Below are positions 888 through 24,643 of a stretch of 32,000 bases of DNA, piece after piece. Both the position numbers and the translations under genes were made by a program. Within the stretch, counting starts at the first letter, position 1. Every line of letters begins with the position of its first letter. The notes beneath the pieces are model-generated. The model was not told the origin of the DNA. It worked only from the letters and a program-made list of their open reading frames with translations, and made no database searches. Source of the DNA: Desulfobulbus propionicus DSM 2032 (GTDB lineage: Bacteria; Desulfobacterota; Desulfobulbia; Desulfobulbales; Desulfobulbaceae); NCBI RefSeq assembly GCF_000186885.1, contig NC_014972.1:2910001-2942000 (forward strand), read 5' to 3'.

Positions 888-1910
888 TCAGCCCTCCGAG
901 ACAACGGTCGCCGGTTCAGCGGCTGCGACGGACTCGGCACCGGCCAGCTCCCTCTTGCGGCGGTAGGCAGCCACCCGGACCAGCGGCGGCCGTTCATGTT
1001 CCGCCAGCCGATGCACCTCCCGTTGCCAGTGCCCCTGCCGACGGACAAACTGGTGCAAACCGTTGGCACATTCCAACGACGCCGCCAGGACGCCCCGCTG
1101 CCACAGCCGCCGATGCACGACCTGGAGCAGGGCATGGGCCATGCGCCCCAATTCCCGGTTGCTGCGGCGGCGGTGGTCGCGACGTTCCAGATCGACCTGG
1201 GCCAGGGAGGCCAGGCCATGTGCGGTCCAGACATCGATCAGATGGGCCAGTTCAACGCCATACCCCACCGGAAAGGGTAACTGTTCGAGCACCGATCGGC
1301 GGGCGGCGTACTCGCCGGCAAGCGGCTGGATGCAGTCGGCCAGTGCAGGGAAATAGAGGGAAAGCAGCGGTCGGATCAGGATCTCCGTCACCCTGCCGCC
1401 CTCACCCCAAGGGTCATCGGCGCCGCCGGCAGGACGATCGTAGAAGGCCTTGACATAGCCGAGATCGGGCCGGTGCAGCAGTGGCCCAACCAGCCCGGTG
1501 ACGAATCGCGGCCGAAGGTTGGTGATATCGGCATCGATGAACAGCAGAATATCGCCCTTGAGCTGATGGACCGCCTTCCACAGGTTTTCACCTTTGCCCC
1601 GGTACCGGCCCAGGTGCGGCAGGATATCGGCGGCACGGTACACATCCGCTCCCGCGGCGGCGGCCAGCTCCAGGGTTCGGTCCGTTGAACCGGAATCGAT
1701 CACCGCCAATTCATCGAGCAGGTGAACCGTATCCCGCAACGGCCGCAGCCGATCGACCACCATGCCGATGGTTGCCGCCTCGTTCAAGGTGGGAAAGCAC
1801 AACGACAGCCGCACCCCCTGCCGCGCCTTCAGCCGAACCAGGGCGGCAACATCGGCGAACTGCTCGTGATGAAAGGTGTGGGTTGCCAGCCATTGATCGG
1901 TTCTGTCCAT
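888..1910 (-). CDS. gpgS: Glucosyl-3-phosphoglycerate synthase (GT81)
   Basis: Collinear similarity, recalled from memory, to mycobacterial GpgS: PTLNEAATIG, VIDSGSTDRT, GKGENLW, FIDADI (DXD), GGRVTEILIRPLL, QPLAGEYAARR, PVGYGVE. The track starts at GTG 1922. I prefer ATG 1910, which is preceded by GAGGGG 6 nt upstream. Confidence 0.8.
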   Translation of the reverse strand: MDRTDQWLATHTFHHEQFADVAALVRLKARQGVRLSLCFPTLNEAATIGMVVDRLRPLRDTVHLLDELAVIDSGSTDRTLELAAAAGADVYRAADILPHLGRYRGKGENLWKAVHQLKGDILLFIDADITNLRPRFVTGLVGPLLHRPDLGYVKAFYDRPAGGADDPWGEGGRVTEILIRPLLSLYFPALADCIQPLAGEYAARRSVLEQLPFPVGYGVELAHLIDVWTAHGLASLAQVDLERRDHRRRSNRELGRMAHALLQVVHRRLWQRGVLAASLECANGLHQFVRRQGHWQREVHRLAEHERPPLVRVAAYRRKRELAGAESVAAAEPATVVSEG

Positions 1911-2060
1911 TCGGCCCCTCACGGTGTCGATTCAAGCCCACAGGGTGGCAGCGGCTGAACGCCGTCCCCGCTGACTGGCACGCCGTGCGCCGTCAAGTCG
2001 CTCCCCAAGAAAAAAGTGCCTGGCGCGAATCGATATCTTATTAAAAATTAAATTATTTCG

Positions 2061-2089
2061 ATTATATGCACGAGAGCACTGCAAATCAA
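2061..2089 (-). promoter_or_regulatory. Putative sigma70-type promoter for gpgS operon
   Basis: The minus strand reads cTTGATT-tgcagtgctctcgtgca(17 nt)-TATAAT. It sits inside the only strongly AT-rich island (about 2030-2075) of the divergent intergenic region. Confidence 0.4.
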
Positions 2090-2237
2090 GCCCGGCGTGT
2101 CCTCTCGCGGCTAAATCTCTGTTTCGCGGCCGCCGCAGCGGGACGCCGCTTCCTCCCGCCAGGGGCCGCACACGGTACCGCAGTCGGCATCAAGCGGCAA
2201 CAGCTCAATATTTCACTCTTTTTTCGCAAATAAAGGC

Positions 2238-2266
2238 TTGCTGAACAGAAGGCGACCTTATATGCT
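2238..2266 (+). promoter_or_regulatory. Putative sigma70-type promoter for the response-regulator operon
   Basis: TTGCTG-N17-TATGCT, about 38 nt upstream of ATG 2304. Confidence 0.3.
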
Positions 2267-2303
2267 GGGCGAATAAAAATACATTTTGTCCTCCAGGTCT
2301 CTC

Positions 2304-3017
2304 ATGTCGGAATCACTCGCCTGCACCGTGTTACTTTTTGAAGACGACCCCGCCATCCGCGCCATGCTCGCCGCCTTTTTCTCCACCCAGGGGGCCAAGG
2401 TGGTGACCGCGGAGGACGGCCGCGAGGCCATGGCCCGAATCGAGGCGGCCCGGCCCGACGTGCTGTTGCTCGACGTGGTCATGCCCTACCGCGATGGCTT
2501 GTCCATTCTCGCGGAGCTGCGCTCGGTGGATGTCGAGCTGCCGGTCATCCTTCTCACCGAACGAAACGGCGAGGACGACAAGGTCACCGGCCTGGATCAC
2601 GGAGCTGACGATTATCTCACCAAACCCTTCAGCCCCCGTGAACTGCTCGCCAGGGTGCGGGCGCTGTTGAGGCGGAGCAAACGGTCCGGGGCCAGCGGCG
2701 GGCAGCACTTGATCGTCGGCCAGGTCCGCATCGATCCCGCCGCCCGGGAAGTCCGCCTGCCGGACGCCTCCCTCCTGCCCCTGACCAAGACCGAGTTCGA
2801 TCTCCTCTACCACCTGGCATCCAGGCCGGGTGCGGTGGTCACCCACGGCGAGCTGCTCCAGGAGGTGCTGGGCTACGATCCCCACGTCGAAACCAAATCC
2901 CTGGTGATGCACATCGCCAACATCCGGCGCAAAATCGATCGAACCTGCCCCCAGGCCCTGAGCATCAAGTCCGTGGCCGGTGTCGGTTACAAACTCATTC
3001 CCGGAGAGGCCCGATAA
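2304..3017 (+). CDS. OmpR/PhoB-family response regulator (receiver + winged-helix DNA-binding domain)
   Basis: Receiver motifs VLLFEDD, LLLDVVMP, DDYLTKPF. The C-terminal winged helix carries LTKTEFDLLYHL and VGYKL. The track starts at TTG 2286. ATG 2304 gives the usual short N-terminus (MSESLACTVLLFEDD). Confidence 0.9.
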   Translation: MSESLACTVLLFEDDPAIRAMLAAFFSTQGAKVVTAEDGREAMARIEAARPDVLLLDVVMPYRDGLSILAELRSVDVELPVILLTERNGEDDKVTGLDHGADDYLTKPFSPRELLARVRALLRRSKRSGASGGQHLIVGQVRIDPAAREVRLPDASLLPLTKTEFDLLYHLASRPGAVVTHGELLQEVLGYDPHVETKSLVMHIANIRRKIDRTCPQALSIKSVAGVGYKLIPGEAR

Positions 3018-3050
3018 TCCGTCTGCTCCGCGCACCCCTGCGAGGTTCCC

Positions 3051-4721
3051 ATGTCCGTCTTCCATCCGACCCGTCTCTCCCTGCCGCTTGTCCTGCTGGC
3101 CGTCCTGCTCTGCCTGACTCTCCCCTGCTCGGCCGCGGAAACGACCAAAGAGGAGGCCATGGTGCCGCTGCATGTGGCCGCCGGCACCAACCTGATCCAC
3201 ATCGCCCGCGACTACTGCCGCGACCGCAGCGACTGGAAAACCATCGCCCGCATCAACCAACTGTCCGATCCCTACCTGATCATCCGCGACACGCGTATCC
3301 AGGTGCCGCTGTCACTGCTCGTTATCGAGCGGTTGAGCGCCACGGTGGCGTCAATCCATGGCCAGGTCCATCTGTCCGCCGACGGTCGCGATCCCGTTGC
3401 CCTGCGCCAGGGCGACACCCTGCTCCCCGGCCAGACGGTGCGCACCGGCGCGGACGGCTATACCCACCTGCTCCTGCCGAACAACACCTACACCCGCATC
3501 GAGCCGGATTCCCAGCTGACCCTCAACTATCTGTTGCGCCTCAAGGACGGCAACGTCAAGGCCGACTTCTTCCTCGGCCGGGGCAACGTCATCCACTGGG
3601 TCCAGGACAAGCTGCGCGCCAACGAGAGTTTCCAAACCCGGACCCCGATCGCGGTCACCGGCATTCGCGGCACCGAATTTCGCCTGAAGATGGCCGAAAT
3701 CACGGCCAATACCGTCGAAACCCTGCGCGGCCGGGTCGAGGTCAGCAGCTCGGGCCGCGCAACCACTCTCGGTCCCGGCCAAGGCCTGCGGGTGGAGGAA
3801 GGCCAGCCGCCGCAACCGCCCCGGCCCCTGCCCGATCCACCGGACAAACCGGCCCTGGAGCCGCTCTACCGCAGCCTGCCGGTGATCATCGCCGCCCCGC
3901 CCCATGCGAAGGCCAAGGCCATCCGCCTGCGGATCACCGCCGATCGGCAGACCCAGGCCACCCTCTTTGACCAGAGTGTCGCGCCGGGCGGCCGCTTCAC
4001 CATCGGCACCCTGAGCGACGGCGCCTTGTTCGCCTCTCTGACCGCCATCGACCAGGACAATTTCGAAAGCACGGTGGTGGGCCCGCTGCCGTTCAACCTG
4101 CGCACCGTGCCGGCCAATCCGATGATCGTTTCCCCCAAGTCCGGCTCCACCCTCTGGGGCACCCACGGCACGATCGAATGGCTCGATTCGGACCAGGTCG
4201 ATCACTACGATCTCCAGCTGGCGAGGAACCCGGAGTTCACCGACCTCATCGACCGCCAGCAGATCAAGGAGGCCCGTTACACCAGCCCCGAGCTGCAACC
4301 GGGCACCTACTATTTCCGGGTCAAGGCCGTGGCCCCGGACGGCTTCACCACCCTGTACTCCATCCCGGTGGCCTGGACCTTGAAACCGGCACCCAAGATG
4401 GACGGCATGGAAGCCACCGCCAACCAAAGACCAACCCTACAATGGCCGGCGATGGCCGACGGCTGGGCGTACGACCTGCAGGTGGCCAGCGACAAGGACT
4501 TCGGCCAGCTGGTGGTCGATCAGCAGGGATTGCCGACCACCTCCTACACCCTGGAGGACATGCTTGCCGCAGGCACCTACCATGTGCGCATCCGTGGGGT
4601 GGAAAACGGTCAGCCGGTCAGTCCGTGGACGCCTCCGCAAACCATGACAGTCAAGCCCAAGCCCTTGGGCTGGGAAGAGCTGTTTTTCGGGGCGGTCACG
4701 CTTGGCCTCATCCTCCTGTGA
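3051..4721 (+). CDS. Secreted LysM + FecR domain protein with two FN3-like repeats and a C-terminal hydrophobic tail
   Basis: Signal peptide LVLLAVLLCLTLPCSAAE. LysM-like segment (about nt 3159-3311: LIHIARDYCRDRSDWKTIARINQLSDPYLIIRDTRIQVP). FecR-like segment (GQVHLSADG...LRQGDTLLPGQTVRTGADGYTHLLLPNNTYTRIEPDSQLTL). Pro-rich linker. Two repeats of about 85 aa (nt 4122-4390 and 4407-4665). Terminal LFFGAVTLGLILL. GAGG SD lies 6 nt before the ATG. Confidence 0.75.
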   Translation: MSVFHPTRLSLPLVLLAVLLCLTLPCSAAETTKEEAMVPLHVAAGTNLIHIARDYCRDRSDWKTIARINQLSDPYLIIRDTRIQVPLSLLVIERLSATVASIHGQVHLSADGRDPVALRQGDTLLPGQTVRTGADGYTHLLLPNNTYTRIEPDSQLTLNYLLRLKDGNVKADFFLGRGNVIHWVQDKLRANESFQTRTPIAVTGIRGTEFRLKMAEITANTVETLRGRVEVSSSGRATTLGPGQGLRVEEGQPPQPPRPLPDPPDKPALEPLYRSLPVIIAAPPHAKAKAIRLRITADRQTQATLFDQSVAPGGRFTIGTLSDGALFASLTAIDQDNFESTVVGPLPFNLRTVPANPMIVSPKSGSTLWGTHGTIEWLDSDQVDHYDLQLARNPEFTDLIDRQQIKEARYTSPELQPGTYYFRVKAVAPDGFTTLYSIPVAWTLKPAPKMDGMEATANQRPTLQWPAMADGWAYDLQVASDKDFGQLVVDQQGLPTTSYTLEDMLAAGTYHVRIRGVENGQPVSPWTPPQTMTVKPKPLGWEELFFGAVTLGLILL

Positions 4722-4739
4722 CAGGAGAGGGACGGCCCG

Positions 4740-6992
4740 GTGAGCAAGCGATTGGCCGCGCCGGTGCTGGCGCTGCTGCTCCTGGGCCTGTTCCAGCTGG
4801 GCGGCCTGCGCCCAGGCCTGAGCAACGACGGACTCGACCTGCTGTTCAGGCTGCGCGGTCCGCAGCCACCGGACCAACGCATCGTCCTCATCGGTATCGA
4901 TGAACCCAGCCTGCGCCGGCTGGGGGCTTGGCCCTTTGCCCGCCGTCTCCATGCCCAACTGCTCGACCGTCTCCGCCAAGCCAAGGCCGTGGGCTTTGAT
5001 CTGCTCTTTCCCGAACCGTCAGCAGACGACAGCCTCTTCAACCAGGCCCTCGCCCAGGGATCGCCGGTGGTCCTGGCCGTGGCCCATGAACGCGATGGCC
5101 GCCTGGCGCGGCCTGCTCCCACCCTCGACGGCTCCAGGGGCCTCGGCCATATCGAAACCCAGCTGGCCGGTGACGGCATCGTCCGCCGGGTCAATCTGGA
5201 CAGCCTGGGAGATGTTGCCCCCTTTTCCCTTGCCCTGCTGCAAGCCGCGGCGATCACCTCGCCGCTGCCCGTACCTGTGGGCCCACAGATCATCAACTTC
5301 CACGGTCCGGAAGAGAGTTTTCTCTTCCTGTCCTACCACGAGGTTCTCAGCGGTCGCTATCCGCCGGCATTCTTCCGCGACCGCCTGGTGCTGGTCGGCG
5401 CTCGGGCCGTCGGCCTGGGCGACAGCCACATCACCGCTTTTACCAGGGAGCTGCCCACGCCGGGGGTCGAGATCCAGGCCACCATTGTCAGCAACTTGTT
5501 GCAACAGGCCTTCATTCGTCCCCTGCCGCTGGTCGCGTGGCTGCTGATCGGCCTGATCGGCCTGCTGGCGGTGCTGGTCTGGCCCGACTGCGGCGAACGG
5601 GTCAACCTCGTGGTCAACCTCGCACTGGCGGCAGCCATTTTCCTCCTGGCCCTGTTCCTCTTCCGTCAGGCCTGCTTTGTCGACTATCCGCTGGTCCTGC
5701 TCTTTCTCTTCCTGGCCTACCCCATTCACCTGCTCCTCCAGTTGCTCCGAGCCGCGAGCCGTATCCTCCTCCAGGCACGGCGGCTTGACCGTGAGCTCGA
5801 TGCCGGCCTGCGCCTGGTGGCCGGCACCATTCCCGCCCCCTATCTGCGCACCGCCCACCGGGCCAACCCGCTCACCGCTTCCGCCATCCAACGTCATCTC
5901 GACCGGCTGCAGACGGCGGTGCATGCCCTCGGTCTGCAACACCACTTTCTCGAACAGTTGCTCAAGGAGGAATTGCCGCCGCTGATTCTGTGGGAACAGG
6001 CAAGCGGCCACGCCCTGTTCGCCAACAGCGCCTTTGTCCGCCTCTGGCAGGACTGCACTGGAGCGGGCCAGCCCCTGCCGTCGCACCCTCGTTTTCTCGA
6101 AACGATCGCCGGTTCCCAGGCCACGGAAAACGATCTGCCTCCATTTCGCGACCCAGGCACCTTCGAGGTGCTCGGCCCCGGCGGCCGACGGTTCTACCAG
6201 GTCGAGCTGCATCCCCTGCTGGCACCCAAGACCGGTTTTCACGGCCTGCTGGCGGTGCTGCAGGACATCACGGGGATCAAGGAACTGGAGCGAGTCAAGG
6301 ACGAGGTGGTGGCCATTGTCTCCCACGAGCTGAGACTTCCGCTGACCACCATCCTGGGCTATGGCGAGCTGCTCAGCGACGCGCTCAGCGGCGATCATCA
6401 GTTGTACGCCCGCGAGATCTGCGGCCAGTCGCGGCGGCTGCAACGGATGATCGAGGATTTTCTCGATATCGCCCGCCTGGAAAGCGGCCGCACCCAGGTC
6501 CGCCGCTTTCCCTTTCCGCCCGGGCGGATGCTGGAGGACGCCATCGCCGCCGTGGGGGATCGGGCGCGGCGCAAAGCCATCGCCATTGTGCTCAACCAGC
6601 CCCGCCGGACCACGCCCCTGGTCGGTGACGAATCCCTGCTTCTTCAGGCCCTCATCAACCTGCTGGACAACGCGATCAAATTCAGTCCCGCGCAGACCAC
6701 CGTCACCGTCGACCTGGAAGAGCAGCCCGCCTGCTTCCTCTTCCGGATCGCCGATCAGGGGCCGGGCATTGCCGTTGAAGATCGGGCGCGGATCTTCGAC
6801 AAGTTCCAGCGTGGCCGCCAGGCCGCCACCGCCGAAGGCTTTGGCCTCGGGCTCCATCTGGTCCGCCAAATCGTCGAACGTCATCAGGGACGGATCGAGG
6901 TGCTGGAGGCCGTCGCAGGCGCGATCTTCCAGATTGTGCTGCCCAAGCGGGAGACCGCCGCTCATCCGGAGGAAGCCGAATCATGCGCGTGA
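4740..6992 (+). CDS. CHASE2-domain sensor histidine kinase
   Basis: N-terminal CHASE2 signature (RIVLIGIDEPSLRRLGAWPFARRLHAQLLDRL..AVGFDLLFPEPS). A cluster of TM helices. H-box VAIVSHELRLPLTTILGY. HATPase_c N/G boxes (NLLDNAIKFSP, DQGPGI, GFGLGLHLV). GTG start preceded by GGAGAGGGA. Confidence 0.85.
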   Translation: MSKRLAAPVLALLLLGLFQLGGLRPGLSNDGLDLLFRLRGPQPPDQRIVLIGIDEPSLRRLGAWPFARRLHAQLLDRLRQAKAVGFDLLFPEPSADDSLFNQALAQGSPVVLAVAHERDGRLARPAPTLDGSRGLGHIETQLAGDGIVRRVNLDSLGDVAPFSLALLQAAAITSPLPVPVGPQIINFHGPEESFLFLSYHEVLSGRYPPAFFRDRLVLVGARAVGLGDSHITAFTRELPTPGVEIQATIVSNLLQQAFIRPLPLVAWLLIGLIGLLAVLVWPDCGERVNLVVNLALAAAIFLLALFLFRQACFVDYPLVLLFLFLAYPIHLLLQLLRAASRILLQARRLDRELDAGLRLVAGTIPAPYLRTAHRANPLTASAIQRHLDRLQTAVHALGLQHHFLEQLLKEELPPLILWEQASGHALFANSAFVRLWQDCTGAGQPLPSHPRFLETIAGSQATENDLPPFRDPGTFEVLGPGGRRFYQVELHPLLAPKTGFHGLLAVLQDITGIKELERVKDEVVAIVSHELRLPLTTILGYGELLSDALSGDHQLYAREICGQSRRLQRMIEDFLDIARLESGRTQVRRFPFPPGRMLEDAIAAVGDRARRKAIAIVLNQPRRTTPLVGDESLLLQALINLLDNAIKFSPAQTTVTVDLEEQPACFLFRIADQGPGIAVEDRARIFDKFQRGRQAATAEGFGLGLHLVRQIVERHQGRIEVLEAVAGAIFQIVLPKRETAAHPEEAESCA

Positions 6993-9031
6993 TCCGTGTT
7001 CTCGTCATCCCCCTGCTGGTCGTCCTGCTGACCCTGCTCGCCTTTCGCCTCGCCTGGATGGAACGGCTTGTCCCGACGGCGTTGAGCTGGGTGGGCATTC
7101 AGCAGGCGCGCCTGGACCTGCACAGCTGGAACTGGCAGGAAATACGCATCGACAGCCTGCATCTGGCCCTCGACCACGCACCCGGCCCGGTGTCGATCAC
7201 CGTTACCGACGCGGTGCTGCGCTATCGGCTTGCCGACCTGCTGCGCGGGCAGCTCGCCGAGGTCACCGCCACCACGGTCGCCATTTCCCTGCCGACGGCC
7301 GGTGTCGAGCGGAACCAATCGTTTGCCGGCGGAACGCCTGATCCGAAATCCCTCGTCGATGCGCTCCACCTGCGTCATCTGCCGGCACGGCAACTGCATC
7401 TTCCACGGCTGTCGGTCGATTTTGGCCCCTTGGCCTCCACCAACCCGTTGGTTCTGTCCGTGACGCTGCGCAGCAGCGACAACGAAAGCCGCCTGAACAT
7501 CGTCACTGTGGGCAAGGAAAAAACGCCTCCCCTTGCCGTGGACCTGCACCGCACCGAGGCAGGACTCAACGGCTCGCTTTTCCTCGATTGGCAGCGACTC
7601 CGGGAGTTCCTGCCTCCATCAATGACCGCCGCCCTGCCCGATCAAGGCAGGATCGAGGCCACCCTGCGGTCCACCGCCGACAGCCCCCTGCGTCTGGCAT
7701 GTTCGCTCTCCGGGCTCTGCCATCAATGGTTCAGCGCCGAGAACCTTTCCTTCCACATGATCAGCGCTCAGCCGCTGTCCGCCCGTTCCCTGACCGTTGC
7801 CCCCGCCTCCCGGCTGACGGCACGCGCTGTCCAGGGGCAGGGCTTTGCCGTGGCCGCCCTTGAGGCGGGCCTCGGCGGTTCGCTCGCCATGGACGGCGAC
7901 GGTCTGCGCCTGCACCTTGCCCCTCCTGCCCCCTGGAGCGTCAGCGGACTGACGATGGGATCCCTCCGCCTGGCCCCGCTCCACCTCGCCAATCTTGCCC
8001 TGCATCTGGAGCTGGATCGGTCCGGGCTGCGGGCCGTTTGCACCCTGACGCCGCCCGGCGGCCGCGGAACGCTGCGCGCCGAATGCACACAAGCAGGCGA
8101 AGACACGCGCAAGGGACAGTGCACGGTGCGGAGTGAAGGCCTGCAAATGGATGCGGACCGCAATCCGCTCGCCCTGCTCGTCGAACCGAAGCTGCCTCTT
8201 GCCCTCCACCAGGGAACGCTGACTTTTTCCCTCCAAGGCCGGTGGCAGCCAGGAGCCCCCCTTGCCCTCGATCTGGAACTTGACGGCAAGGTGGCGCGGG
8301 GAACCGCGTTTGCGGCGCCTTTCTCGGGCCTGGTTGTGCAACAACGGCTGCATCTGCTGCCAGCACTACGTTCGATCACCGCTGGCCTGGTGCAGTTGGA
8401 CAAGCTGGAGGGCCCGATCCCGGTCGACCAGCTCACCATGCACACCCGGTTCACGGCCCCTGCGGGCGGTCAGGCCCCCGTGGTGGCCATCGAACGGGCC
8501 GATGCGGCGCTCTTCAACGGCAAGATTCGTTTGGCAAACTGTGTCTATGACCGCGGCAATCCGGACACGGCATGCCTGGTGCGTTTGGACGATCTTGACC
8601 TCCAGCCGATCGTCGCCCTGCAAAAGGTTGACGGCCTGACCGTCACCGGCCGGGTGAGCGGTCAACTGCCGCTGCGGTTCTCGCCCCAAGGGGTCCGCAT
8701 TCACCAGGGCCGAGTGGAAAACATCGGCAGCGGTCTCATTCGCTATCATCCCGCAGGCAACACCCTCGAAGGCTCCCCGCTCACCGTGTATGCCCGCAAC
8801 GCCTTGGAGGAACTGCACTACCAACGGCTGACCGCCCACATCGATTATCTGCCTGACGGAACCCTCACCGTGGCCCTGCATCTCCAGGGGCAGAACCCGA
8901 AACTGGAGGGAGGAAGGGCGGTGCACCTCAACCTCAACACCGAGCAGAATCTGCTTTCTCTCCTCAAAAGTCTTCAGTATAGTCACTCCTTGTCCTCGGA
9001 GCTCGACCGGACCATCCGGCAGCACCGATAA
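6983..9031 (+). CDS. ydbH: YdbH-like AsmA-family intermembrane phospholipid transport protein
   Basis: N-terminal TM anchor (VLVIPLLVVLLTLLAF). Long beta-rich body. The C-terminal region resembles the DctA-YdbH family (GRVSGQLPL..., YLPDGTLTVALHLQGQNPKLEGGRAVHLNLNTEQNLLSLLKSLQ). It is followed immediately by ynbE and ydbL homologues, as in E. coli. GGAGGAAG SD. Its start overlaps the kinase stop by 10 nt. Confidence 0.7.
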   Translation: MRVIRVLVIPLLVVLLTLLAFRLAWMERLVPTALSWVGIQQARLDLHSWNWQEIRIDSLHLALDHAPGPVSITVTDAVLRYRLADLLRGQLAEVTATTVAISLPTAGVERNQSFAGGTPDPKSLVDALHLRHLPARQLHLPRLSVDFGPLASTNPLVLSVTLRSSDNESRLNIVTVGKEKTPPLAVDLHRTEAGLNGSLFLDWQRLREFLPPSMTAALPDQGRIEATLRSTADSPLRLACSLSGLCHQWFSAENLSFHMISAQPLSARSLTVAPASRLTARAVQGQGFAVAALEAGLGGSLAMDGDGLRLHLAPPAPWSVSGLTMGSLRLAPLHLANLALHLELDRSGLRAVCTLTPPGGRGTLRAECTQAGEDTRKGQCTVRSEGLQMDADRNPLALLVEPKLPLALHQGTLTFSLQGRWQPGAPLALDLELDGKVARGTAFAAPFSGLVVQQRLHLLPALRSITAGLVQLDKLEGPIPVDQLTMHTRFTAPAGGQAPVVAIERADAALFNGKIRLANCVYDRGNPDTACLVRLDDLDLQPIVALQKVDGLTVTGRVSGQLPLRFSPQGVRIHQGRVENIGSGLIRYHPAGNTLEGSPLTVYARNALEELHYQRLTAHIDYLPDGTLTVALHLQGQNPKLEGGRAVHLNLNTEQNLLSLLKSLQYSHSLSSELDRTIRQHR

Positions 9032-9060
9032 CCTCTCCCTTTTCCCCTGCAGGAGGCTGC

Positions 9061-9249
9061 ATGTCCCGACACCTGGCCTTGCTTGCGCTGGCGGCCTTCG
9101 CCTTTTCCGCCTGCTCTCCGACGGTAACGGTGGCTCCGCCCGACAAGCCAATCACCATCAACCTGAACGTCAAGATCGAACACGAGATCCGCGTCAAGGT
9201 GGAAAAGGAGCTGGAGAGCGTCATCAACCCGGAAAGCGGGCTGTTTTAA
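9061..9249 (+). CDS. ynbE: YnbE-family lipoprotein
   Basis: 62 aa. Lipobox LAAFAFSAC. The PITINLNVKIEHEIRVK core matches the E. coli YnbE core as I recall it. AGGAGG SD lies 5 nt upstream. Confidence 0.8.
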   Translation: MSRHLALLALAAFAFSACSPTVTVAPPDKPITINLNVKIEHEIRVKVEKELESVINPESGLF

Positions 9250-9262
9250 ACGGAGGATACCC

Positions 9263-9583
9263 ATGAAACGATGGATCATGACCGTGCTTTTTCTGTTGCT
9301 GTGCGGCCAAACCGCCCTTGCGCTCGATTTGCAGACGGCCAAGGCCCAAGGCCTGGTCGGCGAAACCCCCAGCGGTTATCTGGCCCAGGTACAGAGCGGC
9401 AACGGAGAGACAGCCCAACTGGTGCATTCCATCAATGCTCAGCGCAAACAGGAGTACGAAAAAATCGCCCAGCGCAACAAGACGTCCCTGCAGGCGGTCG
9501 AACAGCTGGCCGGCCAGCAGGCCATGGACAAGACGCCGGGCGGCCAATATATCCTGGTCAACGGCACCTGGACCAAGAAATAA
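9263..9583 (+). CDS. ydbL: YdbL / DUF1318 family periplasmic protein
   Basis: Signal peptide. AKAQGLVGETPSGYL and INAQRKQEYEKIAQRN motifs typical of DUF1318. Ends GTWTKK. Third member of the conserved triad. GGAGGA SD. Confidence 0.75.
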   Translation: MKRWIMTVLFLLLCGQTALALDLQTAKAQGLVGETPSGYLAQVQSGNGETAQLVHSINAQRKQEYEKIAQRNKTSLQAVEQLAGQQAMDKTPGGQYILVNGTWTKK

Positions 9584-9652
9584 CCGATGTGCGAGGGTGA
9601 CGAACCGCCGCTCCCCTTCCCGGCCCAATGTGCCGCTCCCACCACAATCAGC

Positions 9653-9681
9653 TTGACAGGATAAAACTATACGTTTAAGAT
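9653..9681 (+). promoter_or_regulatory. Putative sigma70 promoter giving a leaderless transcript for the ArsR-family gene
   Basis: TTGACA (9653-9658)-N17-TAAGAT (9676-9681). The A of ATG 9689 lies 7 nt after the -10 element. No SD-like purine run between them. Confidence 0.4.
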
Positions 9682-9688
9682 TTTCGAT

Positions 9689-10000
9689 ATGAAAACCAAC
9701 TACACCCGCACCCTGCCCGATGCCTGGAAACCGATGTCCCGGGTGTTCACCGCCCTGGGCGACGAGCACCGTCAGCGCATCCTCCTGTTGTTTGACCAGG
9801 GCGAACGGCTCAACGTGGGCCAGATCGCCGAGGTGTCCACGCTCTCCCGCTCCACCGTCTCCCACCACCTCAAGATCCTCCGCGAGGCCGAGGTGCTGGC
9901 CTCGGAGAAAATCGGCAAGGAGGTCTGGTACTGGATCAACTGCCCCTATCTGGAAACAGTGCTGACCAACGTGCTGGACTACATCCGCCTGATCAAATAA
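9689..10000 (+). CDS. ArsR/SmtB-family winged-helix transcriptional regulator (no canonical metal site seen)
   Basis: LGDEHRQRILLLF...LNVGQIAEVSTLSRSTVSHHLKILREAEVL...KEVWYWIN. Only one Cys (WINCPY) and no CXC motif in helix 3. Confidence 0.85.
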   Translation: MKTNYTRTLPDAWKPMSRVFTALGDEHRQRILLLFDQGERLNVGQIAEVSTLSRSTVSHHLKILREAEVLASEKIGKEVWYWINCPYLETVLTNVLDYIRLIK

Positions 10001-10071
10001 TTTTGTTCAACATGTCGAAATTCCTAAACTCATCAATCAATCGCTCCTGCCCATTCACGAGGAACCCTGCC

Positions 10072-12216
10072 ATGATGCGCTCGATTGTGATCGTTGTTCT
10101 CCGCGGCCTGTGCCGCCTGCTGTTCCGGGTCGATATCCAAGGAGCAGCCGCCGGATTCAACGCCGACCGGCTGCTGGTGGTCGCCAACCACGAGTCCCTG
10201 CTCGATGGCCTGCTGCTTGGCCTGTTCATCCCGATCAATCCAGTGTTCGTGGTCCATACCGCCGTGGCCAACAAACCTTTCTTCCGTCTCATCCTCTCCC
10301 TAGTCGATTATCTGGCCGTGGACCCGACCAACCCCATGGCCATGAAACAGGTGGTCCGCTTGCTGGAGGCCGGCCGCCCGGTGGTGATCTTCCCCGAGGG
10401 GCGGATCACCACCACCGGCAGCCTGATGAAGGTCTACGACGGTCCGGCCTTTGTCGCCGCGCGGACCGGAGCCACCATTCTGCCGGTGCGGCTGGACGGT
10501 CCGTCGCGCAGCTACTTCTCCCGCCTGTCCGGCAAATATCCCAAGGTCCTCTTTCCCCGCATCCGCCTCACCATCCTGCCGACCACGACCATTCCCCTGC
10601 CTTCGGCACCGACCGCCAAACTGCGCCGCCGTCTGGCCGGCGAGGCCATGCGCCGCCTGATGCAGGAGATGGTCTTTTCTTGCCGGCCGGCCCAGACCCT
10701 GTTTGCCGCCTTGTGCGACGCCGCCGAGATCTTTGGCCGCAACCGGCGGCTGCTCGAGGATGTCCGTCAAATCGAATACTCCTACAACGACCTGCTCAAG
10801 ATGGCCCTGCTCCTCAGCCGGCAGGTCGAGCGGATGACCGCGGTCGGGGAGCGGGTCGGCCTGCTGCTGCCCAACATGGCGCCAACGCTTGGCCTGCTGC
10901 TCGGCCTGACCGCCCGCCGCCGCATCCCAGCCATGCTCAACTACACCGCTGGTCTCGACGCCCTCCGGGCCGCCTGCACTGCCGCCGAAATCCGCACCGT
11001 ACTCACCTCGCGCGCCTTTGTCGCCCAGGCCAAGCTGGCCGACAAGCTGGCCGGTCTGCACGGGGTGCAGTTGGTCTATCTGGAGGATCTCAAGGCCAAC
11101 ACCCGTCTGGCCGACACCCTGTGGCTGCTCGCCTACGCGATCCATGCGCCCCGATCCCATGCTCTGCCCGCTTCGCCGGAAGATCCGGCGGTGATCCTCT
11201 TTACCTCGGGCTCCGAGGGTATGCCCAAGGGGGTGGTTCTGTCCCACCGGGCCCTCCTGGCCAACATCGCCCAGGTGCGAGCGGTGATCGATTTTTCCGT
11301 GGACGACAAGGTGCTCAACGCCATGCCGATCTTCCACTCCTTTGGCCTCACCGCCGGCACCCTGCTGCCGATACTCACCGGAGCGAGCCTCTTTCTCTAT
11401 CCAACGCCGCTGCACTACCGGGTCATTCCCGAATTGGCCTATGATCGCAACTGCACCGTGCTATTCGGCACATCCACCTTCCTCAACAACTACGCCCACC
11501 ACGCCCATCCCTATGATTTCTACCGGTTGCGCTATGTGGTGGCCGGGGCGGAGAAACTCTCCGAAGCGGTGCGCAGCCTGTGGTTCGAAAAATTCGGCAT
11601 CCGCATCTTCGAGGGCTACGGGACCACCGAAACCGCCCCGGTGCTGGCGGTGAACACGCCCATGGCCTACCGCACCGGCACGGTCGGCACCCTGCTGCCC
11701 GGCATCGAGGCCCGCCTGGTCGCTGTTGCCGGCGTCGAGCGGGGTGGCATCCTCCACGTACGCGGTCCGAACCTGATGAGCGGCTACCTCAAGGCCGACC
11801 GGCCCGGAGTGCTGCAGCCGCCGTCCTCCGAACTGGGCGAGGGCTGGTATGCAACCGGCGATGTGGTGGAGATCGATAGCGAGGGGTTTGTGCGCATTGT
11901 CGGCCGCATGAAGCGTTTTGCCAAGATCGCCGGCGAGATGATCAGCCTGGAGGTGGTGGAGCGATTGGCCGTGGCCGCCTCCCCGACCTGCAGCCATGCG
12001 GCCGTGAGCCAACCGGATGCCGCCAAGGGCGAAGCCCTGGTGCTCTTCACCACCGACCCGGCGCTCAGCCGCGACCAGTTGAGCACAGCGGCCAGGGAAC
12101 TGGGTGTTGCCGAACTGGCCGTGCCACGCACCATCCGGCCGGTCGAATCGCTGCCTCTAATGGGCACCGGCAAGGTCGATCACCTCGCCCTGCAACGGTT
12201 GGCGGCATCTGCCTGA
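10072..12216 (+). CDS. aas: Bifunctional 2-acylglycerophosphoethanolamine acyltransferase / acyl-ACP synthetase (Aas)
   Basis: N-terminal PlsC-type acyltransferase (NHESLLDG = HX4D; FPEGRITTTG). C-terminal adenylate-forming domain (ILFTSGSEGMPKGVVLSH, GYGTTE, GDVVEIDSEGF, GRMKRFAKIAGE). The track starts at TTG 10003. ATG 10072 has a GAGGAA SD 8 nt upstream. Confidence 0.85.
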   Translation: MMRSIVIVVLRGLCRLLFRVDIQGAAAGFNADRLLVVANHESLLDGLLLGLFIPINPVFVVHTAVANKPFFRLILSLVDYLAVDPTNPMAMKQVVRLLEAGRPVVIFPEGRITTTGSLMKVYDGPAFVAARTGATILPVRLDGPSRSYFSRLSGKYPKVLFPRIRLTILPTTTIPLPSAPTAKLRRRLAGEAMRRLMQEMVFSCRPAQTLFAALCDAAEIFGRNRRLLEDVRQIEYSYNDLLKMALLLSRQVERMTAVGERVGLLLPNMAPTLGLLLGLTARRRIPAMLNYTAGLDALRAACTAAEIRTVLTSRAFVAQAKLADKLAGLHGVQLVYLEDLKANTRLADTLWLLAYAIHAPRSHALPASPEDPAVILFTSGSEGMPKGVVLSHRALLANIAQVRAVIDFSVDDKVLNAMPIFHSFGLTAGTLLPILTGASLFLYPTPLHYRVIPELAYDRNCTVLFGTSTFLNNYAHHAHPYDFYRLRYVVAGAEKLSEAVRSLWFEKFGIRIFEGYGTTETAPVLAVNTPMAYRTGTVGTLLPGIEARLVAVAGVERGGILHVRGPNLMSGYLKADRPGVLQPPSSELGEGWYATGDVVEIDSEGFVRIVGRMKRFAKIAGEMISLEVVERLAVAASPTCSHAAVSQPDAAKGEALVLFTTDPALSRDQLSTAARELGVAELAVPRTIRPVESLPLMGTGKVDHLALQRLAASA

Positions 12217-12254
12217 CACAACCTCTTCCGATCATTCAGTCCAAAGGCCACACC

Positions 12255-14135
12255 ATGAGTTCACAATTCGGTTTGCTCAAGACCCCGCGTTTCCTGCCCT
12301 TCTTCATCACCCAGTTTCTCGGCGCCTTCAACGACAACCTGTTCAAGAACGCCCTGATCGTGCTGCTCACCTTCCAGGCGGCCAGTTGGACCAGCCTCAA
12401 GGCCGAGATCCTGGCCAACCTGGCGGCGGGCATCTTCATCCTGCCCTTTTTCCTCTTCTCCGCCACCGCCGGTCAGTTGGCGGACAAGCACGACAAGGCC
12501 ACCCTCGCCCGGCTGGTCAAGGTGCTGGAGATGGCGATCATGGCCGTGGCCGCCGCCGGCTTCTGGCTGCACAGCCTCCCCCTGCTGCTCGGGGCCCTGT
12601 TTCTGCTCGGCTGCCATTCCACCCTGTTCGGGCCGGTCAAGTACGCCATCCTGCCCCAGCACCTCCATGAGGACGAGCTGGTCGGCGGCAACGCCCTGAT
12701 CGAGGCCGGCACCTTTGTCGCCATCCTCATCGGCACCCTGACCGGTGGCCTGTTGGCCGGTGCGGTCACCCACCCGGTGTGGGTCGCCGCTGGGGGCTTG
12801 CTGGTGGCCTTTGTCGGTTACCTGAGCAGCCGGGGGATCCCCACCGCACCACCGCCGGCCCCGGAGCTGCGCGTCAATCCCAATCCGATCACCGAAACCT
12901 GGCGCAACATTGCCTTTGCCCGCGAAAACCGCACCGTGTTCCTCTCCATCCTGGGTATCTCCTGGTTCTGGCTCTACGGCGCCCTGTTCCTGGCCCAGTT
13001 TCCGGCCTATGCCAAGAATGTGCTCGGTGGCGCGGAATCCACGGTCACCCTGCTGCTGGCCATCTTCACCATCGGTATCGGCATCGGCTCGCTGCTGTGC
13101 GAACGGCTGTCCGGCAAACGGGTGGAGATCGGACTGGTGCCCTTTGGTTCCATCGGCCTGACCCTGTTCGGCCTGGATCTGGCCCTGGCCTCTCCCGCCG
13201 GGCCGATTGCCGGTGCTCCGCTCGGTCTGGGAATGCTGCTCGGTCAGTGGTCCACCTGGCGAATCCTGGTGGATCTGGTGCTGATCGGCATGTTCGGCGG
13301 CTTTTTCATCGTCCCCCTCTATGCCCTGGTGCAGGTGCGCAGCGCGACTGAACATCGAGCGCGGATCATCGCCGCCAACAATATCCTCAACGCCCTGTTC
13401 ATGGTGGTGGGAGCCGTGGCCGCCGGTGCCCTGCTGGGCGCGGGCATGACCATTCCCTGGCTGTTTGCCGTGGCAGCGGTGTGCAACGCCGTGGTCGCCC
13501 TCTATATCTACGGCCTGATCCCCGAGTTCCTCCTCCGCTTCCTCGCCTGGCTGCTGGTGCACGGTGCCTATCGGCTGGAGAAGCGGGGCATCGACCATAT
13601 TCCCGTGGAGGGGCCGGCGGTGCTGGTGTGCAACCATGTCAGTCTGGTGGACGTGTTGGTGATCATGGCCGCCTCGCCACGGCCGGTCCGCTTTTTGCTC
13701 GACGAACGCTTCTTCCGCCTGCCGATCCTCGGCAGTCTACTGCGCCGCAGCGGTGCCATCGGCGCGGACCTGAGCGATGCGCACTCCGCCTCCCTGGTGC
13801 GAGTCCAGGAGGAGGCCGCCGCCACCCTGGCCGCGGGCAACCTGGTGGCCCTGTTCCCGGAGGTGACCCACACACCGGACGGCCACCTGCAACCCTTCCG
13901 CCCGATCGTCACGCCCATCGTTGCCCGCATCCCGGCACCGGTCATTCCCATGGCGCTGCAGGGCTTGTGGGGCAGCTTCTTTTCCCGGATCGAGGGGAGG
14001 GCCTTGGGCCGCCCTTTCCGCCGGGGGCTGCTGTCACGCATCGCGATAGTGATTGGAGCGCCATTGACCGCTGACGAGGCCACGCCCGAGCGGCTGCGAC
14101 AGGCGGTGCAGGATTTGCGAGGAGAATGTCGTTGA
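12255..14135 (+). CDS. lplT: Lysophospholipid transporter LplT (MFS) fused to a C-terminal PlsC-type acyltransferase domain
   Basis: N-terminus FLPFFITQFLGAFNDNLFKNALIVLL and about 12 predicted TM segments typical of LplT (about nt 12255-13520). The C-terminal roughly 200 aa carry VCNHVSLVDVLV (HX4D, nt 13631-13651) and FPEVTHTPDG. Confidence 0.8.
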   Translation: MSSQFGLLKTPRFLPFFITQFLGAFNDNLFKNALIVLLTFQAASWTSLKAEILANLAAGIFILPFFLFSATAGQLADKHDKATLARLVKVLEMAIMAVAAAGFWLHSLPLLLGALFLLGCHSTLFGPVKYAILPQHLHEDELVGGNALIEAGTFVAILIGTLTGGLLAGAVTHPVWVAAGGLLVAFVGYLSSRGIPTAPPPAPELRVNPNPITETWRNIAFARENRTVFLSILGISWFWLYGALFLAQFPAYAKNVLGGAESTVTLLLAIFTIGIGIGSLLCERLSGKRVEIGLVPFGSIGLTLFGLDLALASPAGPIAGAPLGLGMLLGQWSTWRILVDLVLIGMFGGFFIVPLYALVQVRSATEHRARIIAANNILNALFMVVGAVAAGALLGAGMTIPWLFAVAAVCNAVVALYIYGLIPEFLLRFLAWLLVHGAYRLEKRGIDHIPVEGPAVLVCNHVSLVDVLVIMAASPRPVRFLLDERFFRLPILGSLLRRSGAIGADLSDAHSASLVRVQEEAAATLAAGNLVALFPEVTHTPDGHLQPFRPIVTPIVARIPAPVIPMALQGLWGSFFSRIEGRALGRPFRRGLLSRIAIVIGAPLTADEATPERLRQAVQDLRGECR

Positions 14136-14151
14136 GAGCGGAAACCGGAAT

Positions 14152-23288: not shown

Positions 23289-23317
23289 CCCTGCCGGGAA
23301 ACCGGCAGGGTTTTTTT
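23289..23317. terminator. Bidirectional intrinsic terminator
   Basis: AAAAAAG-CCCTGCCGG-GAAA-CCGGCAGGG-TTTTTTT. A 9-bp GC-rich stem with a GNRA loop, an A-run 5' and a T-run 3'. It serves nifJ (+) and the convergent ykgJ-like gene (-). Confidence 0.7.
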
Positions 23318-23329
23318 GTTGATCGCGTT

Positions 23330-23364
23330 ACCGGGGATTGAGCTCGTCATCCCCGGTATTTTTT
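23330..23364 (+). terminator. Second (tandem) intrinsic terminator after nifJ
   Basis: ACCGGGGA-ttgagctcgtca-TCCCCGGT followed by ATTTTTT. Confidence 0.45.
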
Positions 23365-23369
23365 CTGAC

Positions 23370-24344: not shown

Positions 24345-24643
24345 GGCAGTTCCTCTGAGTGCGGAAGGATGAAAGGCATGCGCCCAAAATGGCGCCGAAT
24401 AAAAAAGAAACACTTTACCATGTGCGCCCCCGGTGTCAAATCCTATCCGGACGCTTGACGATGAGGCAGGGAAGGATTCCCTCCTGCCAGTAAAAAAACT
24501 TCATGCCTTTGCCGTCAGATTCAGCGACAGGAAGACCGCACCGCCTGAAAAAATCCATACCGGGGCCGCTTATTTTATGTCATTTCCCGGTCAAACCTGC
24601 TAAGAGAAAAGCAATAATTTTTCCATTTCACCCCATTAAGTGC

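Follow-up and report, generated by a model that had tools for sequence, protein, structure and literature searches.

A CHASE2/FecR sensor cassette overlapping the ydbH-ynbE-ydbL genes in Desulfobulbus propionicus: a candidate regulator for the phospholipid bridge

Analysis of the window (the whole 32,000-nt stretch of Desulfobulbus propionicus DSM 2032 DNA studied here) led to six same-strand genes at 2304-9583, in which a sensor triad of response regulator, LysM/FecR protein and CHASE2 histidine kinase overlaps the ydbH-ynbE-ydbL genes of the inner-to-outer-membrane phospholipid bridge. Judged from the sequences, what is new here is this clade-restricted combination of known parts. Co-transcription of the six genes is likely, and we consider the chances about even that they act as one unit, in which an envelope-sensing kinase and its response regulator set the expression of their own operon and hence the output of the ydbHEL bridge.

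Gene content and domain architecture

The spacings between the six genes are 33, 18, -10, 29 and 13 nt (ORF coordinates); re-derivation of the coordinates agreed in every case with the same-strand array and spacings of a preliminary description of this DNA. The first gene (2304-3017, plus strand) encodes an OmpR/PhoB-type response regulator (RR) of 237 aa, whose Pfam matches to Response_reg (104 bits) and Trans_reg_C (PF00486, 71 bits against a cut-off of 26.2) both pass. The receiver residues E13, D14, D15, D57 and K107 are all present in the translation. The protein falls under every NCBIfam equivalog cut-off and is therefore not PhoB, CpxR, CreB or another named regulator.

The second gene (3051-4721, plus strand), located 18 nt upstream of the CHASE2 gene, encodes an exported protein of 556 aa with a LysM-like region, a FecR domain and three Ig/fn3-like domains. 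The FecR domain (PF04773) scores 45.2 bits against a cut-off of 24 and is also matched by 11 of 11 orthologues. LysM was unreported in the whole-protein Pfam search, and the isolated N-terminal segment reached 18.1 bits, under the cut-off of 20.9. Five of the 11 aligned orthologues match Pfam LysM (best E-value 1e-6), and positions 34-88 of the orthologue profile match the PDB LysM proteins Ecp6, CEBiP and Kbp (E-values 3e-4 to 8e-3); the putative N-terminal LysM is supported at the orthologue and profile level only. The preliminary description missed the Ig/fn3-like domains, visible as Pfam matches to fn3 and Ig_J, and also a conserved C-terminal hydrophobic tail. The alignment showed that this tail (GWEEL...GIILL) is kept in 10 close orthologues and is lacking in the distant L003 protein. 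Among 79 sampled metagenome CHASE2 loci, most have a FecR-profile match directly upstream of the CHASE2 gene.

The CHASE2 sensor histidine kinase (4740-6992, plus strand, GTG start, 750 aa) consists of an N-terminal TM segment, a periplasmic CHASE2 domain, a TM bundle, a weak PAS-like region, HisKA and HATPase_c. CHASE2 (PF05226, residues 10-276, 176.5 bits), HisKA (62.3 bits) and HATPase_c (91.5 bits) all pass their Pfam thresholds, and PAS_4 (17.6 bits) stays under its own. Hydrophobic segments were read by eye from the translation at about 8-24 and 265-340, and the H-box SHELRLPL, the N box and the G box are visible in it. Both the RR and the kinase retain their catalytic residues, as read from the translations.

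The fourth gene (6983-9031, plus strand) encodes a short YdbH-like (AsmA-like) inner-membrane protein of 682 aa, matching PF11739 with 217.3 bits (cut-off 26.3) over profile positions 2-125 and 380-892. NCBIfam YdbH (PRK10695) aligned to the C-terminal ~210 residues only, with 68.2 bits against a cut-off of 824, hence the protein is not an equivalog of E. coli YdbH. The search returned 3932 homologues, the closest with 42% identity, and no PDB sequence match. It is followed by a YnbE-like small lipoprotein of 62 aa (9061-9249, plus strand; PF13617, Lipoprotein_19, 64.3 bits, passing) with the lipobox FSAC at residues 15-18, and by the periplasmic protein YdbL (DUF1318) of 106 aa (9263-9583, plus strand), which passes PF07027 with 97.2 bits and matches PDB 28oj, 'chaperone-like protein YdbL', at E 9.8e-15. 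Nearly all of 80 genome loci have the trio conserved; ynbE adjoins ydbH in 77 of them, and of the exceptions two end before the gene and one scores below threshold. Pfam thus upheld the RR, FecR, CHASE2 kinase, YdbH, YnbE and YdbL assignments of the preliminary description, with LysM alone falling below threshold.

The kinase/ydbH junction

The kinase stop and the ydbH start share 10 nt, ATGCGCGTGA (6983-6992), and ydbH begins within the kinase ORF, preceded by the SD GGAGGAAG (6968-6975) in the kinase 3' end; the whole junction occupies 6968-6992 of the plus strand. Both elements had been reported before and were located in the sequence. Terminator scan and RNA folding found neither a terminator-like site nor significant RNA structure at the junction, which, together with the overlap and SD, bears out the operon-like arrangement proposed previously. 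At the sequence level the array shows what is expected of a single operon, namely one strand, short or negative spacers and no internal terminator. The promoter scan found no sigma-70-like site in the window's kinase 3' end. Over the final 100 codons of the kinase, third-position identity (0.52-0.59) does not exceed the average for the gene (0.53) and gives no hint of an embedded conserved promoter.

The overlap, in the form ATGCGCnTrA, is kept in eight loci (the window, L001, L007, L008, L085, L017, L087 and L088), across which its stop codon alternates between TGA and TAA. L100, with a kinase identity of 45%, bears an independent 4-nt ATGA overlap, and L010 has a +7 nt gap instead of an overlap. 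The junction is steadier than its flanks, where GT1/GT2, arsR-aas-lplT or an SDR gene have been gained or lost. The tight spacing of six same-strand genes is ordinary; it is the conservation of the junction in other species that goes beyond chance.

Promoter region

The predicted operon promoter (2238-2266, plus strand) has a -35 element TTGCTG at 2238, a 17-nt spacer and a -10 element TATGCT at 2261. It scores under the threshold of a simple promoter scan and rests on the upstream alignment, in which CTTGCC-N17-TTTTATGGT is conserved in L007, L008, L085, L015, L002 and L009; in L009 the promoter now precedes ydbH. The conserved box AACAGCTCAATATTTCAC lies at 2199-2216 (plus strand), its centre about 65 nt upstream of the predicted transcription start. 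The window contains a single copy (0 matches expected by chance); L001, L007, L008, L085, L087 and L088 also have one copy each, in every case ahead of the RR gene, and the box occurs nowhere else in the 165 loci (~20 kb inspected per genome). In the upstream alignment it is conserved neither in L009, which lacks the sensor, nor in L002, which carries it. The box may be a binding site of the response regulator. The promoter scan also placed a promoter-like site, TTGATT-17-TATAAT (2061-2089, minus strand), at the left boundary of the unit. Its motif is conserved whether or not a locus carries the sensor module, and the site therefore belongs to the GT2 glycosyltransferase gene (888-1922, minus strand), divergent from the sensor operon, and not to that operon.

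Downstream lipid genes

The same-strand array extends to 14135, a feature that had been overlooked, with an arsR-family regulator gene (9689-10000), aas (10072-12216) and a gene for an LplT-like MFS-PlsC fusion (12255-14135), all on the plus strand. The arsR product matches NCBIfam HTH_metalloreg with 68.7 bits against 55, the Aas acyltransferase/acyl-ACP synthetase passes its equivalog cut-off (PRK08043, 980.7 bits against 886), and the MFS protein stays under that of LplT (100.7 bits). Neither scan nor folding found a terminator or significant structure between ydbL and arsR. The promoter scan detected TTGACA-17-TAAGAT ahead of arsR (9653-9681, plus strand), the best sigma-70-like match in 1900-14300 (10/12); this promoter-like site may act as an internal promoter of the lipid-repair genes that follow. 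The block was found in L001, L007, L008, L017, L087 and L088, in L015 without arsR, and is absent from L085, L009, L014, L031 and L055. It forms a second, separately variable membrane-lipid gene block.

Distribution, gain and loss among relatives

Concerning Desulfobulbales-type ydbH loci with at least 2.5 kb of upstream DNA, 8 of 37 have the full module upstream and 2 of 37 the RR and FecR genes only; at gammaproteobacterial ydbH loci the sensor module was found in 0 of 18. Loci with the full module upstream of ydbHEL are L007, L008, L010, L015, L017, L085, L031, L055, L087, L088 and L100, and kinase identity among them drops to 45-47%. All module-bearing loci fall in one clade of the UbiB tree, which indicates that Desulfobulbus and Desulfogranum have the module by descent. 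The link between sensor and ydbHEL is confined to one clade of sulfate-reducing Desulfobulbaceae, within which the region from cytB to ubiB is syntenic throughout, so that adjacency could persist by inertia.

The neighbourhood survey of ydbH loci showed that the adjacency is conserved and not unique to this genome. The preliminary description had called the two halves 'hard-wired', which is too strong, since several relatives break the linkage. The sensor occurs without ydbHEL at the same chromosomal site (L002, L090, L091, L101) and at other sites (L092, L093, L094, L104), and ydbHEL occurs without the sensor in L009, L013 and L014. The kinase-ydbH spacer is 116 nt in L031, where it carries its own TTGAGC-N17-TATACT site, and 708 nt in L055; in L097 an opposite-strand gene intervenes. 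L009 bears a deletion scar that fuses RR aa ~35 with kinase aa ~646, with the promoter retained before ydbH; the last ~100 kinase codons are retained and degenerate at the protein level.

Comparison with known systems

As a cassette, the RR-LysM/FecR-CHASE2 triad is already known and widespread, and the genes downstream of it vary. The BiofilmReg operon of Burkholderia contaminans, the BCAL1443 locus of B. cenocepacia, comprises an RR, a LysM-FecR protein (COG4254), a CHASE2 kinase and DUF4136, and the fourth gene of such cassettes varies between taxa (PMC5192318). Both systems have the three genes in the same order on one strand, tightly spaced, with an OmpR-class RR first, an exported FecR protein with a LysM or LysM-like region and a kinase of CHASE2, TM bundle, (PAS), HisKA and HATPase. 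Here, however, the fourth gene is ydbH, joined by a start/stop overlap and followed by ynbE-ydbL, in place of DUF4136 or no gene, and the FecR protein has three extra Ig-like domains and the C-terminal hydrophobic tail. The CHASE2 region shares ~30-35% identity with the CHASE2 proteins retrieved from outside the Desulfobulbaceae, Burkholderia not being among them.

In E. coli, ydbH-ynbE-ydbL form a three-gene operon for which a dedicated regulator is not reported (PMC11126948; bioRxiv 10.64898/2026.03.16.712125). The three families and their order are identical here: YnbE has its lipobox, YdbL matches the solved E. coli structure, and YdbH carries a hydrophobic anchor at its N-terminus and the conserved C-terminal YnbE-pairing region, although it measures 682 aa against 869-879 aa in E. 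coli. Also, E. coli ydbH and ynbE overlap, with translational coupling (PMC6728339), whereas here they lie 29 nt apart and the overlap is with the upstream kinase.

The CHASE2 adenylate cyclases CyaD1, CyaD2 and CyaK of Sinorhizobium meliloti act with the outer-membrane protein NsrA (summarised in PMC13001267), a comparable case of CHASE2 receptor input via an envelope partner protein and not a known small-molecule ligand. They differ in having cAMP output instead of phosphotransfer, an outer-membrane beta-barrel partner instead of FecR/LysM, and no link to lipid transport. The genes directly downstream of ydbL resemble the LplT-Aas lysophospholipid retrieval and re-acylation system, with an Aas equivalog and then an LplT-like MFS on the same strand; here the MFS carries an additional fused PlsC-type acyltransferase domain, and an ArsR-type regulator gene with a promoter-like site of its own comes before the pair, in a block that is an independent indel among relatives.

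Proposed mechanism and alternative explanations

We propose that the conserved sigma-70-type promoter upstream of the RR gene would drive a six-gene transcription unit. The CHASE2 kinase and its exported LysM/FecR/Ig-like partner would sense some feature of the cell envelope, the kinase would phosphorylate the OmpR-type regulator on D57, and the regulator would act at the box 2199-2216, thereby setting transcription of its own operon. Since ydbH starts within the last codons of the kinase, YdbH, YnbE and YdbL output would track sensor-operon expression, and the outcome would be an envelope-responsive supply of the phospholipid bridge. What genome comparison itself establishes is which genes these are, how they are spaced, that the junction and the promoter are conserved, and how the two halves were gained and lost. 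Sensor control of ydbHEL expression is something we infer from the sequence, and the same holds for autoregulation via the box, for what the signal is and for any influence on lipid transport. The one-operon reading is favoured by the overlap with its SD, the missing terminator, the kept junction and its steadiness relative to the flanks, the occurrence in 8 of 37 loci and in a single clade, the promoter retained in L009, the single-copy box, the lack of any hint of a promoter within the kinase 3' end and the intact catalytic residues. It is weakened because the halves separate easily, because L031, L055 and L097 have a spacer or an intervening gene, because clade-wide synteny could preserve the adjacency by inertia, because L002 has the sensor but not the conserved box, because 0 of 18 gammaproteobacterial loci have the module, and because in other settings the cassette stands ahead of unrelated genes or of no gene at all (PMC5192318).

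A second, somewhat unlikely scenario is positional hitch-hiking, in which an ancestor would have acquired a mobile RR-FecR-CHASE2 cassette at the site between cytB/GT2 and ydbH, and later compaction would have joined the cassette to ydbH. The genes would share a transcript, but the RR would have its true targets at other places, such as the surface polysaccharide or biofilm genes suggested for Burkholderia, and ydbHEL would receive roughly constitutive read-through. Such hitch-hiking agrees with the wide occurrence of the cassette with variable or missing downstream partners (PMC5192318; CHASE2 loci sampled), with viable sensor-only and ydbHEL-only relatives at the same locus, with the persistence of ydbHEL without the sensor after the L009 deletion, and with the general cytB-to-ubiB synteny of the clade. 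It accounts less well for an overlap maintained in at least eight loci, with a second overlap type in L100, for a junction that resists the indels affecting both flanks, and for a putative regulator box seen only at its own operon promoter (~20 kb per genome inspected).

Independent expression from a ydbHEL promoter in or just after the kinase 3' end, with an incidental overlap and no transcriptional or regulatory coupling, seems improbable. The promoter-like site in the L031 spacer, the long spacer or intervening gene of L055 and L097, and the L009 deletion, which spared both the upstream promoter and the final ~100 codons of the kinase, would fit it. Against this, the window's kinase 3' end has no sigma-70-like site and no excess synonymous-site conservation, the L009 kinase remnant is degenerate at the protein level, and the ydbH start codon with its SD lies inside the kinase ORF. 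A physical partnership is highly doubtful: here the FecR/LysM/Ig protein and CHASE2 would contact YdbH-YnbE-YdbL or gauge the surrounding peptidoglycan or periplasm, the kinase would report the state of the bridge, and the overlap would aid co-translational assembly. Subunits of heteromeric complexes are enriched in short gene overlaps (PMC10666635), YdbH-YnbE is considered too short to reach across the periplasm, and additional partners may be required (PMC11126948, PMC12447247), and the FecR-like protein is long and multi-domain and is predicted to be membrane-tethered with a PG-binding-type domain. However, close relatives have the sensor but no ydbHEL, or ydbHEL but no sensor, and the same FecR architecture accompanies CHASE2 proteins without a nearby ydbH.

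No paper in the library searched links YdbH to any sensor system, in line with the earlier remark that a dedicated signalling system for ydbH-ynbE-ydbL is not known to have been described. On the strength of genome comparison, the sensor cassette can be regarded as a first candidate regulator for such an outer-membrane phospholipid bridge. In a bolder and rather improbable extension, the YdbH-YnbE-YdbL bridge would have a dedicated feedback sensor, made up of the CHASE2 kinase and a FecR/Ig partner tethered to peptidoglycan. This sensor would respond to the occupancy of the bridge, to periplasmic geometry or to a shortage of phospholipid in the outer membrane and would tune bridge production accordingly, in certain genomes in coordination with the adjacent Aas/LplT lipid-repair genes. 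If true, an AsmA-like lipid transporter would for the first time have a dedicated signalling system, and a CHASE2/FecR pair would for the first time have an assigned physiological input and output.

Organization of the Array and Its Junctions

Re-derivation of the ORFs led to six plus-strand genes between 2304 and 9583, with coordinates and spacings exactly as in the preliminary description. The array opens with a response regulator gene (RR, 2304-3017), followed after 33 nt by a FecR-like gene (3051-4721) and after a further 18 nt by a CHASE2 kinase gene with a GTG start (4740-6992). At a spacing of -10 nt from the kinase lies ydbH (6983-9031), followed by ynbE (9061-9249) and ydbL (9263-9583) after gaps of 29 and 13 nt, respectively. 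The kinase gene ends and ydbH begins within the shared sequence ATGCGCGTGA (6983-6992), and GGAGGAAG is located at 6968-6975, within the kinase gene. This arrangement had been taken for classic translational coupling; the overlap and the upstream GGAGGAAG are real, but the -10 nt overlap, although short, is not the classic case, as canonical coupling distances are overlaps of -4 and -1 nt (PMC10666635).

Among the loci of relatives compared (L-numbers), L001 is a 99%-identical contig from a Logan assembly, and the nearest species-level genome is L007, an uncultured Desulfobulbus MAG. The overlap, in the form ATGCGCnTrA, is kept in the window and in L001, L007, L008, L085, L017, L087 and L088, with a stop codon varying between TGA and TAA. 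The kinase-ydbH spacing is +7 nt in L010, +52 in L015, +116 in L031 and +708 in L055, and locus L100 has a 4-nt ATGA overlap. A consensus scan found no terminator-like site at any junction of the six genes, and RNA structure at the kinase/ydbH junction (6880-7040) was no better than that of shuffled sequence (z = +1.0). Gene anatomy and comparison with relatives support co-transcription of all six genes well, and it is quite likely.

Protein Identities

The RR, FecR, CHASE2-kinase, YdbH-like, YnbE-like and YdbL assignments proposed earlier all pass the curated Pfam cut-offs. The RR contains Response_reg and Trans_reg_C and retains D57, K107 and the acidic pocket, and the kinase combines CHASE2, HisKA and HATPase_c with its H, N and G boxes retained. 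YnbE matches the YnbE-like Lipoprotein_19 family and YdbL matches DUF1318, the latter also aligning with the solved YdbL structure 28oj (E-value = 9.8e-15). The YdbH-like match reaches 217 bits. Window YdbH is a short form of 682 aa; the Desulfogranum proteins have ~830 aa and that of Escherichia coli 869-879 aa. It scores 68 against the 824 of the NCBIfam E. coli YdbH equivalog and is a family member, not a close orthologue of the E. coli protein. YdbH also evolves much faster than its neighbors: identity between the window and L007 is 48% for YdbH, 68% for the kinase and 93% for UbiB.

The N-terminal segment of the FecR-like protein had been described as LysM. Tested alone, the window segment stays below the cut-off (18.1 bits vs. 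20.9), but orthologues show good conservation of this region, 5 of 11 of them match LysM (best E-value = 1e-6), and a search of PDB with their profile retrieves the LysM proteins Ecp6, CEBiP and Kbp. It is treated here as a divergent LysM with putative peptidoglycan binding. The protein also bears two features absent from the preliminary description: three Ig/fn3-like domains besides FecR, and a hydrophobic C-terminal tail (GWEEL..G.V..GIILL, encoded at 4671-4718) with no basic residues after it, which is kept in 10 of 10 close orthologues and may be a tail anchor or sorting signal.

Flanking Genes

The same-strand array runs on past ydbL with genes for an ArsR-type regulator, Aas and an LplT-like MFS to which a PlsC acyltransferase is fused (9653-14135), after which ubiB is convergent. 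Aas clears its equivalog cut-off (981 against 886). In the consensus scan, the strongest sigma-70-like match across this region lies at the ArsR-type regulator gene (9653-9681), and no terminator or RNA structure was detected between ydbL and arsR (9575-9695, z = +0.7). The arsR-aas-lplT block is present in L001, L007, L008, L017, L087 and L088, occurs without arsR in L015 and is missing in others. Since only some relatives have it, it is a second, independent indel, of membrane-lipid genes, beside the lipid-bridge genes.

The upstream flank consists of divergent GT2 and GT1 glycosyltransferase genes. The GT2 promoter is near-consensus (TTGATT-17-TATAAT, 2061-2089, minus strand) and conserved across species with or without the sensor cassette (RR, FecR-like protein and kinase). 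In two Desulfocapsa MAGs, L057 (294-6141) and L063 (233-4726), a FadD-like acyl-CoA/ACP ligase precedes ydbH-ynbE-ydbL (ydbHEL), and L057 has a gene for a FadL-type outer-membrane fatty-acid channel between the ligase gene and ydbHEL. These genes are another lipid-themed neighbor of ydbHEL in Desulfocapsa; weaker tblastn signs were seen in L039, L048, L059, L062, L070, L075 and L083. Elsewhere in the window, a 909-aa ORF (29244-31973, minus strand) and a 380-aa ORF (23316-24458, plus strand) gave no match to Pfam at E ≤ 1e-5, and the ORF at 25733-27361 (minus strand) encodes HEAT repeats together with a receiver domain at the C-terminus.

Distribution of the Sensor Cassette and of ydbH

The neighborhood survey comprised 80 + 79 loci, with ~20 kb inspected per relative; relatives are mostly MAG or metagenome contigs, and gene calls are greedy longest-ORF. 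A first word-indexed YdbH search, with 5 matches, was replaced by an exhaustive representative search and an alignment-driven genome scan. The exhaustive HMMER search yielded 3932 YdbH homologues, the closest 42% identical, and alignment of the closest ones led to 80 ydbH loci from GTDB species genomes, which were screened with tblastn, phmmer and a CHASE2 HMM. Counting loci for which 2.5 kb or more of upstream sequence was available, the full RR-FecR-CHASE2 module precedes ydbH in 8 of 37 Desulfobulbales-type loci, so the adjacency is not unique to this genome; neither the full module nor RR-FecR only was found in 18 gammaproteobacterial loci or the single Chlorobium locus. The eight are L007, L008, L010, L015, L017, L085, Desulfogranum mediterraneum L031 and D. 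marinum L055. Two further Desulfobulbales-type loci, D. japonicum DSM 18378 L068 (7300-12460) and L074 (6083-11068), have intact RR and FecR-like genes immediately before ydbHEL, lack the kinase gene and show no detectable remnant of it; what is left is an orphan regulator plus FecR protein. A recurrent kinase link near ydbL (L023, L028, L029, L057, L063, L084) was rejected: these hybrid kinases have PAS or dCache domains and are unrelated to the window kinase. In the Desulfobulbales loci a gene on the opposite strand intervenes between them and ydbL, and in L084 they lie several genes downstream.

The reverse survey combined word-index matches with a metagenome scan using the CHASE2 region (79 loci). 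L087 and L088 carry the full window-like array, including ydbH after the kinase, and in L097 an opposite-strand gene of unassigned family lies between kinase and ydbH. On four independent contigs from a related lineage (L002, L090, L091, L101) the cassette occupies the same syntenic site (cytB ... ubiB), with the kinase stop 12 nt from convergent ubiB and with ydbHEL and arsR-aas-lplT absent. Cassettes lacking ydbH occur at other sites as well, before convergent glmS (L092, L093) or unrelated genes (L094, L104). No similarity to a divergent ydbH was found after the kinase on short contigs near L100 (L098 and others). A weak YdbL-profile match (27 bits) lies beside the CHASE2 gene of L153.

Gain and Loss of the Module

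Trees were neighbor-joining and built from single proteins. In the UbiB tree, the loci that carry the module all fall into one clade (Desulfogranum plus Desulfobulbus) and the ydbHEL-only lineages lie outside it, which fits a single acquisition of the module upstream of ydbHEL with later losses. In the kinase tree, ydbH-linked members are interleaved with ydbH-less ones, and the sensor-ydbH link has thus been broken several times. One such loss is directly visible in L009, a Desulfobulbus MAG without the sensor, as a deletion scar between GT2 and ydbH (9720-9965). In this decayed stretch, RR residues ~4-35 are joined in frame to kinase residues ~646-719, and the kinase remnant is 46% identical to the L015 kinase (E-value = 2e-8, small database). 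The old operon promoter is retained upstream, and ydbH follows the scar in its ancestral register. The link between sensor and ydbHEL is demonstrably dispensable in both directions.

Promoter, Regulation and Alternative Explanations

The promoter upstream of the RR (-35 CTTGCY, 17 nt, -10 TATGGT-like, 2238-2266) is conserved, L009 included. An 18-nt box at 2199-2216, a candidate RR binding site, is conserved in six loci and single-copy across the 165 loci surveyed; it is not conserved in L009. A motif common to the RR promoter and the ydbH-proximal spacers of L031 and L055 was rejected, as it was one 13-mer with 2 mismatches and an estimated ~0.4 expected by chance.

In the explanation we favor, which has about an even chance of being correct, the two-component system would act at its own promoter, presumably through the box, and set the expression of a single operon, from which the supply of YdbH, YnbE and YdbL would follow. 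It is also possible, if rather doubtful, that a promiscuous cassette has merely hitch-hiked to this position. CHASE2/FecR sensor pairs are common, and the great majority of the 79 loci have a FecR-profile gene ahead of the CHASE2 gene, irrespective of output domain. The degree of conservation makes the fusion a credible functional lead.

That ydbH is driven by an independent promoter is improbable: over the final 100 codons of the kinase gene, identity at synonymous sites (0.52-0.59 vs. 0.53 overall) is not elevated, which is weak evidence against a conserved promoter within the 3' end of that gene. In Desulfogranum, ydbH may have its own promoter, because the 116-nt L031 spacer (9825-9945) contains a good promoter-like site (TTGAGC-N17-TATACT). 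Physical partnership between sensor and bridge is very unlikely. Returning to the single operon regulated at its own promoter, the earlier proposal of an envelope-sensing circuit was right about the array itself, and the circuit gains partial support.

Relation to Known Systems and Significance

The sensor half corresponds to the Burkholderia "BiofilmReg" operon (RR / LysM-FecR / CHASE2-kinase), whose fourth gene differs between taxa (PMC5192318). In S. meliloti, CHASE2 receptors receive input via an envelope partner (PMC13001267). The transport half corresponds to the E. coli ydbH-ynbE-ydbL operon (PMC11126948; bioRxiv 10.64898/2026.03.16.712125), in which ydbH and ynbE overlap and are translationally coupled (PMC6728339). 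In this array, two known modules are fused into one operon-like unit whose distribution is restricted to one clade. Our literature search found no paper naming both YdbH and CHASE2, and the publications it returned on YdbH, YnbE or YdbL name no regulator of them.

If the fusion is only positional, it would be a clear example of a mobile sensor cassette captured by, and lost from, a neighboring operon, with the L009 deletion scar as part of that record. Cultured strains allow testing, namely Desulfogranum mediterraneum DSM 13871 and D. marinum DSM 2058 for the spaced form and D. japonicum DSM 18378 for the kinase-less form. The overlapping junction kept across several species offers a concrete hypothesis, that of an envelope sensor linked to lipid-bridge output, which bears on the coordination of phospholipid delivery with outer-membrane growth in Gram-negative bacteria.
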